The notes under the pieces are model-generated. The model did not search any database and was not told the DNA's origin. It saw nothing but the letters and a program-made list of their open reading frames with translations. Both the position numbers and the translations under genes were made by a program. 64,000 nucleotides of DNA from Lingula anatina (Eukaryota > Animalia > Brachiopoda): contig CM120642.1 in NCBI GenBank assembly GCA_051362555.1, positions 20,460,001-20,524,000 of the forward strand. The letters are read 5' to 3'. How positions within the stretch are numbered: the stretch's first letter is position 1; every line of letters begins with the position of its first letter. Positions 1,056 through 13,633 of the stretch are shown here, piece by piece.

Positions 1056-1167
1056 ATGGCAAGCAGAAAAAGCCTCTTAGCTGTGGTCACTGTGCTGTTT
1101 TGGACATCACTGGTCGCAAGCCCTCTGCAGAGTTTTATTCATCATATAAATAAAAGACAGCTTGGTG
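1056..1167 (+). CDS. Exon 1: signal peptide and short propeptide ([37 protein letters not shown])
   Basis: GCAATGG start context; basic n-region plus hydrophobic h-region; donor G|GTAAGT at 1168; phase 1 matches the next exon. Too short for the ORF track. Confidence 0.8.
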
Positions 1168-11200: not shown

Positions 11201-13633
11201 CGGAAGTGACGGCGCGAAAGGTGATAGCGGTCCACCCGGGCCCACTGGACCCGCGGGAGCACGAGGCCAAACTGGCACTCCCGGCCTTCCTGGTCAGAGT
11301 GGAGAAGATGGAGCTCCCGGTCCCAAAGGGGAAGACGGTGAAGATGGACAACCAGGAGCCCGTGGCCCGCCAGGACCCACGGGGCCCAGTGGGCAACCTG
11401 GACCTAGAGGAGAGGCTGGTGAACCTGGAAGTCCTGGACCGACCGGTCCTGCTGGTCAGCAGGGAGCTGATGGTGAAGATGGACCACCAGGCCCTACAGG
11501 TCCTGCAGGCCCCAGAGGTGAGACAGGAGAAGCGGGAAGTTCGGGTAGTCCAGGTCCACAAGGGCCTACGGGACCGACAGGGGCATCGGGAGATTCAGGA
11601 ATGGTTGACAGTTGCTTTCCAACCTTGCATTGCCCAGTACCTTGCTACAGCGGATATACATCACGTAAGCTTTTTTTCTCGATTTAATCTATTACTTTTT
11701 GGTCCAGTTAAGTGATATTCCAAATTTAATGGAACTGCATTGTTTTTAGAGTAGAACGCGTGCAAATTTTAACAGGTATAGTATTATTGCGGAAGAAATA
11801 AATATATGCATTTGTGTATAATACCATACTTACATCTTAATCGAATTTTCATGCTCTTAGTGTGTAACGGAAATATGTGGCAGAATCCAACAGCGCTGGT
11901 AAGCAGAGCCGTATCTCTCATCGACCAGTGTGGGATATTCCCCCGGAATAACGTTAACTTTCTTTGGCGGTCTTACTGGATGAATCCCTACACCGTCAAT
12001 CTTCCTGGCAGCGGGGGGTGCGGCCCAGGCGGGTGTCTCGGGGGAGGTTTCCCAACTGGTATTCATTATGGCGGCTACCCCGGCCCAAACTCTGGGCCCG
12101 TAGGAGCACCAGCAGGTCTCATGGCTCACTTTCAGCCTCCGGACGGCAGCAACACATCCGTACAGGCGGCGTGGAAAGCAGTCATGAACGTGAACGGCGG
12201 GTCCCCAATGACTGTAGACCCTCAGAAACTTGGGGCGGGCGGACTGTGGCAGGTGAGAAAGAATCTGCTGATATTACACCAATCAGTAGAAGTCGACGAC
12301 AGAACGTTATAATAACGTTACCATAATGTTTTTTTTGTTTTTATCAACGTTATGGTAAAGTTATAATAACGTTATGTGTTTATGGGATAGGAGCGGAGCC
12401 GGTGTGATAGGAATGGTAGTCCTAGGAATGGAAGTGCGGAGTCCCGTATGATTAGTACTAGTTAGGATTAGTCGGATATTGGGGTTAGTATATGGGACGA
12501 TAATGGACCACCTGTACAAATTAATGGGGAACGGAGTACGATTCCCAGCAATCTACCATTCCTGTCACACCGGTAGTGGGGCTTGAGCACTTTTTTCAAC
12601 CAGTTCAGTAATAACCACGAAGGGCAGAGACCTAAGGGAGGGCTGGGTTCCACTGCTTTGAAACTAAATGTAAACTTCAGTGTATCATTAAAATGTTGCG
12701 CCGAGGACTGCGACTTATTTTCTCAACCAGCTTGCAACATCATTTACATCATTTTTTGCCATTTCCCCTTTCTCTGTCGCTAATTGTGTGTCTACTTATG
12801 ATTCCCCCTTGCAGCTTATACTTTTCATCATACGAGCCTGAATAATTTTCATTCGTTAGTAGAATTGTGGATGTTCTACCGCATGTAGCAACGCTTGAAA
12901 TTAAACACATGTTAGATTAAGGGGGTAAGCGACTCAAGCGTTGCAAGTTAATGTATGGCAAGCCAGCAATTTCAAAAAGGGGGGTTCTTTTTCTGAATAT
13001 AGTTTTTCCCATAAAAACTTCATGTACCTAGATCAAATTTTCCCAGAGTGGACCTTTTCCTAGCAAAAAGGGCGGTTCTTCGAACCCCCCGAACCCCCCT
13101 GGCTACGGGCCTGTATGGGTATCTCTGGATAGACTTCAGCCCTTCCTTCAGCTACAAGTGCAAGTGGGTACAAACAAGCCGCCCACTTCCCTTAGCTAGT
13201 ATAGCGTATAGTTATAGGGTTTGGACCTAGGACTATGCGCTACAATGGAGCATCGCAAGATCTCCCCTAAATATTCAAAACTTTGGTATGATTTTCTGCC
13301 TTCCAGGTTCCAGAGAAAATGTTCAACGCCACCAAAAGGGCCGCTGATCGTCGCGCCTTACAGAACTACTACCAACAGATACAACGGCAGTTCTGCGTGG
13401 ATTGGACACAGATGCCGTACGGCTGTTTGCGCAACCCCCTTTACTCCGCCATGGCAACACAGATGTACCTCTTAGTACAGCCCAGGCCAGTGCCCTCGGG
13501 ATGCGCCCAGCAGGCTACGATGTGGTCCAATTTCGTTCAGCAGTCCAATATGCGGCAAGCGTTTGTACAGAACTGTTACTCAGCCCCGAACTATAATCAG
13601 TTGAATCAACAGCTTCAGTATTTTCTTGTGTAA
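1056..13633 (+). CDS. Whole gene model: secreted multidomain collagen (SP-CTLD-like-vWA-SUEL-EGFx6-collagen-lysozyme-like), 18 coding exons, ~1788 aa (1774 aa with the alternative exon 13 acceptor)
   Basis: Hand-joined exons 1056-1167, 1659-1925, 2590-2700, 2910-3218, 3417-3803, 4081-4272, 4992-5027, 5482-5742, 6058-6189, 6650-6892, 7258-7491, 7790-7906, 8399(or 8441)-8647, 8961-9158, 9644-9832, 10054-11664, 11861-12252, 13307-13633. All are GT-AG bounded and frame-compatible without stops. AATAAA follows at 13833. Confidence 0.85.
1659..1925 (+). CDS. Exon 2: N-terminal part of a C-type lectin-like domain
   Basis: TACAG acceptor, GTAAG donor, 267 nt. W..V...C..F...[17 protein letters not shown] matches the CTLD helix-1 pattern (EA..YC...GG.LV). 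Confidence 0.8.
2523..2547. repeat. (GA)n microsatellite
   Basis: Direct observation. Confidence 0.9.
2590..2700 (+). CDS. Exon 3: CTLD-like middle part (FWTGG...VKWNG)
   Basis: TTTGTAG acceptor, GTACAA donor, 111 nt, phase 1-1. FWTG and KWNG resemble the CTLD WIG and W.DG motifs. Confidence 0.7.
2910..3218 (+). CDS. Exon 4: Cys-containing segment ending [11 protein letters not shown] (probable CTLD C-terminal strand with a long insertion)
   Basis: TTTCCAG acceptor, GTAAG donor, 309 nt open frame, phase 1-1. Confidence 0.75.
3417..3803 (+). CDS. Exon 5: von Willebrand factor A domain, first part
   Basis: [12 protein letters not shown] (MIDAS DxSxS), [22 protein letters not shown] acceptor and GTAATG donor. 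Confidence 0.95.
4081..4272 (+). CDS. Exon 6: vWA domain, second part
   Basis: Translates [37 protein letters not shown]...RACR, the typical vWA C-terminal half. TTTTAAG acceptor, GTAGGT donor, 192 nt. Not in the ORF track. Confidence 0.9.
4992..5027 (+). CDS. Exon 7: 36-nt micro-exon linker ([12 protein letters not shown])
   Basis: Strong TTTCAG acceptor and GTAAGT donor; GC-rich island in an AT-rich intron; phase 1-1. Confidence 0.7.
5482..5742 (+). CDS. Exon 8: SUEL / rhamnose-galactose-binding lectin-like domain (divergent)
   Basis: CE.....LQCP....I.V ... [10 protein letters not shown] ... DC ... LRVNYMC reproduces the SUEL cysteine pattern; GTAAGT donor; 261 nt. Confidence 0.8.
6058..6189 (+). 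CDS. Exon 9: EGF-like domain 1
   Basis: [12 protein letters not shown]...[22 protein letters not shown] acceptor and GTAAGT donor; not in the ORF track. Confidence 0.92.
6205..6252. repeat. Compound (CT)n(GT)n(GC)n microsatellite
   Basis: Direct observation. Confidence 0.9.
6650..6892 (+). CDS. Exon 10: EGF-like domains 2 and 3
   Basis: [12 protein letters not shown]...[12 protein letters not shown] and [12 protein letters not shown]...[12 protein letters not shown]; canonical splice sites. Confidence 0.93.
7258..7491 (+). CDS. Exon 11: EGF-like domains 4 and 5
   Basis: [13 protein letters not shown]...[12 protein letters not shown] and [12 protein letters not shown]...[12 protein letters not shown]; canonical splice sites. 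Confidence 0.93.
7790..7906 (+). CDS. Exon 12: EGF-like domain 6
   Basis: [12 protein letters not shown]...[21 protein letters not shown] acceptor and GTAAGT donor. Confidence 0.92.
8224..8286. repeat. Compound (CT)n(GT)n microsatellite
   Basis: Direct observation. Confidence 0.95.
8399..8647 (+). CDS. Exon 13: start of the collagen triple helix (Gly-X-Y from 8449); acceptor at 8399 or 8441
   Basis: 22 uninterrupted Gly-X-Y triplets; donor G|GTACAA splits a Gly codon; two frame-compatible acceptors. Confidence 0.88.
8961..9158 (+). CDS. Exon 14: collagen Gly-X-Y (22 triplets, includes one RGD)
   Basis: 198 nt; TTTCAG acceptor and GTGAGA donor; perfect Gly periodicity. Confidence 0.93.
9232..9374. 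mobile_element. Degenerate MITE with GGTGTGACAGGAA-type TIR, in intron 14
   Basis: GGTTGTGACAAGAATGGTAGTCCT ... TTCCTGTCACACC; left end is shared with the element at 12399; internal CCCTAACCC. Confidence 0.55.
9505..9539 (+). mobile_element. Possible 3' end of a Helentron-associated (HINE/DINE-like) element
   Basis: CAGAGGTCTGTACTCTCCGGGTGCCTTTCTGGGTT resembles such termini (short hairpin, then TTCT(A/G)GTT). Recognised from memory only. Confidence 0.25.
9644..9832 (+). CDS. Exon 15: collagen Gly-X-Y (21 triplets)
   Basis: 189 nt; CTATAG acceptor and GTGGGC donor; perfect Gly periodicity. Confidence 0.92.
10054..11664 (+). CDS. Exon 16: large collagen exon (~172 triplets, one G-A-G interruption) followed by a Cys-rich neck
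   Basis: 1611 nt open frame; helix ends at GDSGMV and is followed by [24 protein letters not shown] acceptor and GTAAGC donor. Confidence 0.95.
11861..12252 (+). CDS. Exon 17: C-terminal non-collagenous domain part 1, with a Gly/Pro-rich insert
   Basis: CTCTTAG acceptor (phase 1), CAG|GTGAGA donor (phase 0); ends ...GAGGLWQ. Confidence 0.85.
12303..12373. repeat. Imperfect 28-bp inverted repeat (hairpin) in intron 17
   Basis: AACGTTATAATAACGTTACCATAATGTT matches the reverse complement of 12346-12373 with 3 mismatches. Confidence 0.7.
12399..12573. mobile_element. MITE with 21-bp TIRs in intron 17
   Basis: CCGGTGTGATAGGAATGGTAG ... CTACCATTCCTGTCACACCGG (1 mismatch); weaker complementarity continues inward. 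Confidence 0.75.
12954..13113. mobile_element. Degenerate non-autonomous DNA transposon with a CAGGCCCGTAGCCAGG-type end
   Basis: Right end GAACCCCCCGAACCCCCCTGGCTACGGGCCTG; eroded left end AGCCAG...AAAAGGGGGGTTC. Confidence 0.45.
13307..13633 (+). CDS. Exon 18: C-terminal domain part 2 and stop codon
   Basis: TTCCAG acceptor, phase 0, gives GGLWQ|VPEKMF...FCVDW...[10 protein letters not shown]...QATMW...; TAA at 13631-13633. Confidence 0.85.
   Translation, partial: VPEKMFNATKRAADRRALQNYYQQIQRQFCVDWTQMPYGCLRNPLYSAMATQMYLLVQPRPVPSGCAQQATMWSNFVQQSNMRQAFVQNCYSAPNYNQLNQQLQYFLV

Follow-up and report, generated by a model that had tools for sequence, protein, structure and literature searches.

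Collagens that combine EGF domains with a triple helix and lack the COLFI domain were described for the brachiopod Lingula as a new group of 17 genes, four of them represented in the shell (PMC4595640; again PMC13425148), and domain shuffling was reported to be frequent in this animal. The gene studied here lies at positions 1056 to 13633 on the plus strand of a 64,000-nucleotide stretch of the Lingula anatina genome, called the window in the following (GenBank assembly GCA_051362555.1, contig CM120642.1, positions 20,460,001 to 20,524,000). It encodes EGF and Collagen domains and no COLFI, which is how the Lingula group is defined, and could itself belong to those 17. The initial annotation of this DNA had considered these genes as possible partial relatives; related they are, yet not from elsewhere, since the gene falls under the definition of that very group (PMC4595640). 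It is a new variant of the Lingula EGF-collagens and not a first, because EGF-plus-collagen genes have already been described for Lingula.

Fibrillar collagens carry a C-terminal COLFI domain, and type IV collagens show many helix interruptions and a paired C-terminal C4 domain (PMC3308698). Pfam scans detected neither COLFI nor C4, as initially stated, and the helix has one interruption, which sets the chain apart from the fibrillar and the type IV collagens. The architecture lies outside the named collagen classes, for one gene in one species; this much of the earlier claim stands, although the loose definition of the Lingula EGF-collagens does accommodate it. We tentatively favor the reading that the gene encodes a secreted collagen composed of adhesion modules, a helix of 237 Gly-X-Y triplets and a tail of predicted lysozyme fold without the catalytic Glu, which likely acts as a trimeric tether of about 200 nm between matrix proteins and chitin-type sugars.

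Gene Model and Expression

The exon chain was built on the sequence (window positions 1-15000 were read) and then tested with raw short RNA reads. Seven of nine RNA runs were aligned: X12, X15, X18 and X20 on positions 700-14200, and X15, X16, X17 and X19 on positions 700-8100.

1056..13633, plus strand: whole gene, 18 coding exons, 1,747 aa
1056-1167, 1659-1925, 2590-2700, 3033-3218, 3417-3803, 4081-4272, plus strand: exons 1-6
4992-5027, 5482-5742, 6058-6189, 6650-6892, 7258-7491, 7790-7906, plus strand: exons 7-12
8399-8647, 8961-9158, 9644-9832, 10054-11664, 11861-12252, 13307-13633, plus strand: exons 13-18
13833..13838, plus strand: first polyadenylation-signal hexamer after the stop codon; read depth drops in this bin

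All 17 introns are delimited by GT..AG, and the frame is open throughout from 1056 to 13633. In the RNA reads, 16 of the 17 introns appear as GT..AG joints, each such read proving a single joint and not one full-length molecule. The single gene first proposed is thereby supported, with its domain order of signal peptide, C-type-lectin-like domain (CTLD), vWA with an intact metal ion-dependent adhesion site (MIDAS), weakly SUEL-like domain, six EGFs, helix and C-terminal globular domain. A break between exons 12 and 13, where the EGF part passes into the collagen part, had been named as the observation that would refute it; reads contradict such a break, joining the two exons 22 times with 18 starts in X15, eight times in X20 and twice in X18. 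The joint of exons 9 and 10 (6189 to 6650) is not among the read joints listed. A microsatellite (6195-6268) begins six bases behind the exon 9 donor, where the read aligner cuts reads, and exons 9 and 10 are joined in the same way in the public model P0203. Two other acceptors were rejected: position 2910 for exon 4 gives a more lectin-like reading, while RNA reads and the public model use 3033, and position 5495 for exon 8 breaks the frame, so that 5482 was adopted.

First mates map nearly all to the minus strand in X15 and X16 and therefore indicate plus-strand RNA. Exons are clearly covered by reads of X15 and X16 and moderately by those of X18 and X20. Coverage in X19 is very low, and X12 and X17 show next to none, so that expression differs between samples. 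Among 55 exonic variants, the best-supported rows listed in two read alignments, 45 are synonymous compared with a random expectation of 25%, and none changes a glycine of the helix. Variants within exon 16 fall on third positions of the collagen frame in 15 of 18 cases. The reading frame is under purifying selection.

RefSeq distributes the locus over two uncharacterized L. anatina genes on one 70,353-bp contig, LOC106160501 (XP_023932349.1, 1,511 aa) and LOC106160506 (XP_013392578.1, 131 aa). The former uses the same exons for aa 1-1023, with 13 differences, and leaves the collagen frame at aa 1024 inside exon 16, its end being this collagen exon read in another frame. The latter comprises aa 1617-1747 alone, with 99% identity over exon 18. 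Both represent the same gene, but neither shows the whole architecture. A split annotation had been anticipated and exists; its cause, however, is the frame change inside exon 16 and not the suspected exons 1, 6, 7 and 9, which are right in RefSeq. Owing to the frameshifted model, more than 700 residues were missing from the public protein sets on which proteomics draws.

Besides the split in RefSeq, the one joint unseen in reads and a read depth that in X15 is much higher at the 3' end of the gene could be taken as signs of two genes, or of a long product that is an assembly artefact. We consider this highly improbable: reads of X15 join exons 16 and 17 (52 reads) and exons 17 and 18 (more than 130 reads), no indel inside exon 16 occurs among 12 of 16 read-indel rows, and both the out-of-frame end of the public protein after aa 1023 and the third-position variants of exon 16 argue for the collagen frame.

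Reads of X18 and X20 mostly match the window at 90-99% and diverge from it more than those of X15 and X16, as would be expected if one species label covered strongly structured populations or cryptic species. Dispersed repeats in introns (12960-13115, 9235-9271, 12403-12500 and 5367-5416) attract partly fitting reads from other transcripts, which accounts for intronic depth peaks. A small inverted repeat pair lies between introns 14 and 17. Upstream, 155 bases before the start codon, an element at 710-900 resembles miniature inverted-repeat transposable elements; its terminal inverted repeats measure 38 nt (95%), its internal repeats 43 nt.

The C-Terminal Domain

The globular domain initially seen at the C-terminus and left unnamed is present. 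It is a degenerate member of a family with a predicted lysozyme fold and the most unusual part of the protein.

11881..13579, plus strand: exons 17-18, degenerate domain of predicted lysozyme fold (about aa 1516-1730), family matching phrog_3108 (profile search, model of P0009)
11983..11985, plus strand: Asn1550, most likely in the Glu column of the family (hhalign; register moderately supported)
11989..12237, plus strand: probable Gly/Pro-rich insertion of 83 aa in this domain (aa 1552-1634)

Searching 1.84 billion representatives with exon 18 retrieved 75 further proteins at E<=0.001. Runs of at least six Gly-X-Y triplets occur in none of the 76 proteins of this search, and none of the 75 others has a collagen rod. 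Named holders among 29 family proteins looked up are a sea star, a brittle star, an annelid, a snail, a clam, a mite and an alphaproteobacterium; judged from these sequences and the phage records below, the family is common to animals, bacteria and phages. Its domain occurs alone, as tandem copies, or fused to other domains, namely vWA (8/49 members scanned), CBM_14 (3/49), trypsin (1/49) and EGF (1/49). In the named animals it is a mobile module, often beside vWA or the chitin-binding CBM_14. The family has no Pfam and no NCBIfam model, and Pfam gave no match on exons 17-18. The profile phrog_3108, of unknown function, is matched by 39 of 43 family members, and a family profile built without the Lingula sequence recovers aa 1619-1734 at E 5.5e-34, which assigns the collagen tail to the phrog_3108-matching family at the level of sequence profiles.

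A lysozyme fold is predicted for the family from P0009, a member with a complete domain whose structure model reaches a predicted local distance difference test score (pLDDT) of 91.6. Its wide structural search listed 50 rows, all 50 belonging to the lysozyme superfamily by their entry titles. The best match is MltE with chitopentaose (Z 9.6, root mean square deviation 3.6, 129 aligned residues); 12 chains reach Z>=8, and further matches are phiKZ gp144 (Z 9.4) and the GH23 chitinase of Ralstonia (Z 8.7). The nearest solved folds are mostly peptidoglycan enzymes. Foldseek with P0009 ranks the same lysozyme-type families first, below significance. Among the ESM Atlas neighbors of the collagen tail that bear a family label, SLT was found at 0.84, a lead only, and a PDB sequence search with the tail alignment returned nothing meaningful.

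Phage records matching P0009 number 17. In two of four phage loci viewed, the family member directly precedes an annotated holin, a position consistent with an endolysin function of the phage members. The phage genes phiKO2 gp54, K21lambda1 locus 2 and PMBT28 AUZ95556.1 are annotated as hypothetical and belong to the tail family.

L001, 2390-2881: tail-family phage gene, annotated hypothetical
L002, 611-1108: tail-family phage gene, annotated hypothetical
L003, 2387-2884: tail-family phage gene, annotated hypothetical

As two of the three phage genes sit before a holin, they are candidates for unannotated endolysins.

Loss of the Catalytic Glutamate

In active muramidases and lytic transglycosylases, the catalytic Glu ends the helix before a GxxQ motif. 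The corresponding column of the tail family contains Glu in 43 of the 47 members with a residue there; most members keep it, while P0025, P0029 and P0060 have Met. The collagen tail has no Glu in aa 1490-1641, and the sole Glu of aa 1490-1747 is E1642, behind the GGLWQ motif. According to hhalign, the first helices of the family align to the start of exon 17, Asn1550 occupies the Glu column, and the insert precedes GGLWQ; in a first shuffle control of this register, none of 1,000 shuffles reached the score. MAFFT favors another register with Met1617 in the Glu column. Either way no catalytic Glu is left, because aa 1490-1641 contain none. The family motifs behind the insert, GGxWQ, W, LxxPLYS, P and QAxxW, are kept. 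Since the Glu of the family is missing and an 83-aa insert is probable, the tail is predicted to be a pseudo-enzyme.

A tail of this kind might bind no sugar at all and instead serve folding and trimerization, equivalent to an NC1 domain, in a single-headed matrix or adhesive collagen whose N-terminal array is the active part. Collagen helices nucleate at the C-terminus (PMC11923368), yet the chain has no COLFI, C4 or C1q domain for this step. The missing Glu, the probable large insert and the fast divergence of the tail would agree with such a role, as would the amphipathic helix in which it ends in a model of low pLDDT. However, the core motifs after the insert are kept, which fits a retained fold and is silent on the ligand, and no lysozyme-fold domain is known to act as a trimerization cap. 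We regard a mere cap as rather unlikely.

Collagen Helix and Cysteine Linker

8449..11606, plus strand: 237 Gly-X-Y triplets of the triple helix (aa 777-1489), encoded by exons 13-16
10467..10472, plus strand: sole helix interruption, two residues (aa 1110-1111)
11607..11880, plus strand: cysteine-rich linker behind the helix (aa 1490-1515, four Cys; from the sequence)

The near-continuous triple helix of about 710 aa in the initial annotation is found with 713 residues, in runs of 111 and 126 triplets around the single break. With the rise of 0.286 nm per residue of a triple helix, the rod is roughly 200 nm long. The four cysteines of the linker are a candidate for an inter-chain disulfide knot. 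All introns inside the helix (8399-11664) are in phase 1, and one helix exon measures 1,611 bp. Fibrillar collagens have an exon pattern based on 54 bp instead (PMC3308698), and the difference points to an independent history of the rod. Neither a second collagen exon nor a second copy of the tail domain is present elsewhere in the window.

The Y positions of the helix contain 58 Thr and 44 Pro, the X positions 81 Pro. Thr is strongly biased to Y, with 58 residues there versus 5 at X (P 1.7e-12). Its share of the Y positions amounts to 24%, whereas 84 collagens that are animal-type by name or domain content have a median share of 3.6% and reach 15% at most. These comparators were taken from 120 collagens, the best 120 of 2,811 from a word-based search with exon 16; among the 36 left out, mostly microbial or unnamed, 26 have a higher Y-Thr share than this helix. 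The search itself returned generic collagens only, and the Pfam column shows an EGF family for none of these best 120 of 2,811.

The whole chain has 8.3% Ala and a pI of 5.7. These values bear on the idea that the gene is an ordinary shell-matrix EGF-collagen of Lingula, a structural fiber of the phosphatic shell. EGF combined with collagen, without COLFI, is the published definition, and the gene may be one of the 17 (PMC4595640). The four shell members, however, consist of Collagen and EGF only and are Ala-rich (10-21%) and basic (pI 9.4-11.3; Supplementary Table 25, PMC4595640), and neither public accession occurs in the files of the 2026 shell proteome, in which nine collagen proteins are listed (PMC13425148). 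An ordinary shell fiber therefore appears improbable to us.

N-Terminal Modules

1056..1167, plus strand: exon 1, signal peptide of about aa 1-22, inferred from hydrophobicity windows
1659..3218, plus strand: exons 2-4, C-type-lectin-like domain (about aa 61-220; ESM Atlas neighbors)
3417..4272, plus strand: exons 5-6, vWA domain (aa 228-417; Pfam VWA, E 1.1e-22)
4992..5027, plus strand: exon 7, linker of 12 aa with a cysteine; joints on both sides in reads
5482..5742, plus strand: exon 8, cysteine-rich domain with weak resemblance to SUEL (Gal/Rha lectin; Pfam)
6058..7906, plus strand: exons 9-12, six EGF-like repeats (aa 527-757; Pfam, six stretches)

The N-terminus is the sole strongly hydrophobic stretch of the protein, the twelve most hydrophobic 19-residue windows all beginning within aa 1-13. 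A Lys-Arg pair at aa 33-34, still in exon 1, is a possible cut site of a propeptide.

The modules between signal peptide and helix are supported to different degrees. The six EGFs and the vWA domain that the initial annotation had named are confirmed by Pfam, while the CTLD-like and the C-terminal regions have no Pfam match. For aa 38-226, neither Pfam nor the PDB sequence search gave a match; the CTLD-like reading is suggested by ESM Atlas, where 27 of 30 neighbors are Lectin_C at scores of 0.90-0.91, the best sharing 146 of 256 features. Calcium-dependent sugar-binding C-type lectins carry EPN or QPD plus WND motifs, none of which occurs in this domain. MIDAS motifs of vWA domains follow the pattern DxSxS...T...D, and the residues are kept here as D239-x-S241-x-S243, T316 and D349. 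The best PDB match of the vWA domain is PTMP1 from mussel byssus (4cn8, E 6.9e-36), a protein that binds collagen. The SUEL resemblance is present but weak: the match to PF02140 scores 15.5 bits with a cut-off of 31.4 (E 0.023) and covers profile positions 1-66 of 80, and the PDB sequence search with exon 8 gave no match. The adhesive lectin heads of the initial annotation are unproven, because both modules lack canonical sugar motifs and SUEL stays below the cut-off.

The lectin-like modules also bear on an innate-immune function, in which the protein would trap microbes much as a collectin fitted with other heads, its dead muramidase cleft binding peptidoglycan uncut and its lectin-like, vWA and EGF end recruiting cells or mucus. 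Further points in its favor are the peptidoglycan enzymes among the solved folds nearest to the tail family, the phage members beside holins and the patchy expression among the RNA runs. On the other side, the 713-residue helix is much longer than those of collectins, ficolins and C1q, the CTLD is devoid of EPN, QPD and WND, and the PTMP1-like vWA together with the EGF array points to a structural matrix. A microbe-trapping collagen is thus an unlikely, albeit not far-fetched, explanation.

Proposed Mechanism

The favored tether would be a homotrimer, nucleated and registered at the C-terminal cysteine linker and the tail. Its helix, about 200 nm long and kinked once, would act as a stiff spacer; this proline-poor helix may be stabilized by glycosylated threonines at Y, by analogy to the cuticle collagen of Riftia. 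At one end, three vWA heads with MIDAS would grip collagen or other matrix proteins in a metal-dependent manner; at the other, three dead lysozyme clefts may have kept the binding of GlcNAc polymers. Chitin is our first guess for the ligand because the shell of Lingula combines chitin, collagen and apatite and its chaetae are chitinous (PMC4595640, PMC13425148).

Several observations weigh against this mechanism. The lysozyme fold was modeled on the family member P0009 and not on the full collagen tail. Foldseek found no PDB match at E<=0.001 for the model of P0009 or for that of the last 131 aa of the collagen, and the latter model, which is without the first helices of the domain, has five lysozyme-fold rows at Z 3.4-4.0 among 50, below unrelated matches. 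The hhalign register, at P 2.5e-4, has a probability of just 43%, and in a second shuffle control the best shuffle (113.2) exceeds the joined score (111.6), so that the registers are not separated. The probable insert could block the cleft, and the collagen tail forms a very long branch in the family tree (a quick, mostly unresolved tree, which cannot show a donor or a gene transfer); all ligand binding may therefore be lost. Neither of the lectin-like modules carries canonical sugar motifs. Both accessions, in the versions searched, are missing from the 2026 shell proteome files, which do contain a control accession; the public model behind them is frameshifted. Nor do the shell collagens listed for two Lingula shell proteomes, as far as read, include this protein. 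Finally, no orthologue was found by word-based protein searches or a metagenome scan: exon 17 gave none among 160 candidates of longer proteins, the vWA exon one of 182, which is the Lingula model itself, and the tail 35 pattern matches in metagenomes, none confirmed, all three being weak evidence of absence.

It is possible, although we hold this with considerable doubt, that the gene opens a collagen class in which a repurposed, dead endolysin-type lysozyme domain forms the cap, binding chitin or peptidoglycan and maybe also trimerizing the chain, and that it exposes an unrecognized family of lysozyme fold common to phages, bacteria and many invertebrates, which would serve animals as a mobile module outside the cell. 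Collagen classes are largely defined by their C-terminal non-collagenous domain, and a lysozyme-fold pseudo-enzyme at this place was not found in the literature searched. The predicted pseudo-enzyme tail and its unmodeled family raise the gene above a routine shuffled matrix protein. If the tail binds chitin, it would provide a direct link between the collagen and the chitin of the lingulid shell, chaetae or pedicle. The tail family itself has no Pfam model, mostly retains the Glu and has holders in several animal phyla, which makes it a candidate, open to testing, for a muramidase or chitinase family overlooked in animals. Moreover, because Lingula lives in shallow water, its Thr-rich helix could be used to test whether stabilization by glycosylated Thr is peculiar to vent worms.

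Neighboring Features

A single long open reading frame with a signal peptide lies at 15531-16640 on the minus strand, tail-to-tail about 1.9 kb behind the collagen gene. It reads as chitin/polysaccharide-deacetylase-like, with a weak Pfam match to Polysacc_deac_1 (E 0.038), and its proximity may be due to chance. In an otherwise gene-poor stretch, a POU-homeodomain exon is located at 42842-43789 on the plus strand (Pou E 1e-30, Homeodomain E 2e-18). It resembles POU4/Brn3 and contains a short Asp-Met-Arg repeat.

Comparison with Known Systems

Neither the full architecture nor any collagen carrying a lysozyme domain turned up in the literature searched, which was mostly open-access. Among the closest described proteins are the Lingula EGF-collagens, with which the chain shares the animal, secretion, EGF plus collagen and the lack of COLFI. 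The shell subgroup is Ala-rich and basic, a composition this chain does not have. Beyond their Collagen and EGF domains it carries heads of CTLD-like, vWA and SUEL-like type, an array of six EGFs, an acidic, Thr-rich helix and the lysozyme-fold tail predicted above. In Lingula, VWA and Gal_Lectin are not among the top ten partners of Collagen, and Supplementary Table 25, as far as read, shows no Collagen+VWA entry (PMC4595640).

A vWA domain N-terminal to the triple helix is shared with types VI, VII and XXVIII, the FACIT collagens XII, XIV, XXI and XXII, and the cnidarian vWA-WAP fibrillar collagens. Unlike these, the chain has an EGF array and a tail of predicted lysozyme fold, and it is without WAP and COLFI; Pfam scans of P0203 and exons 17-18 detected no FN3, TSPN/LamG, Kunitz or C-terminal vWA domain, the features that distinguish types VI, VII, XXVIII and FACIT. 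The chain likely shares with the vWA-bearing collagens a part in linking matrix components (PMC3308698).

The cuticle collagens of annelids provide a further parallel. In Riftia pachyptila, Thr is enriched at the helix-stabilizing Y position and glycosylated (PMC11766948); the enrichment at Y is shared, a likeness of composition. Annelid cuticle collagen helices are far longer than this one, those of Alvinella reaching about 8,800 aa (PMC12403961).

Among proteins of other design, collectins and ficolins likewise combine a collagen stalk with modules of the carbohydrate-recognition type. In them a short helix is followed C-terminally by a C-type lectin or fibrinogen domain, unlike in the present chain, where the lectin-like domain is N-terminal and without sugar motifs, the helix comprises 237 triplets and the C-terminal fold is another. 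Matrilins and AMACO use vWA (plus EGF) heads to bridge collagen matrices, matrilins oligomerizing by a coiled coil; these proteins and PTMP1 share such heads but have no collagen helix of their own.

The tail, finally, belongs to a family that shares its predicted fold with the lysozyme superfamily, represented by MltE, MltC, Slt70, phiKZ gp144, the Ralstonia GH23 chitinase, phrog_3108 and phiKO2 gp54, at a sequence identity of 8-18% to the solved members. A conserved Glu at a helix end followed by GGxWQ is shared as well, whereas the collagen copy has lost the Glu and probably gained an insert of 83 aa.

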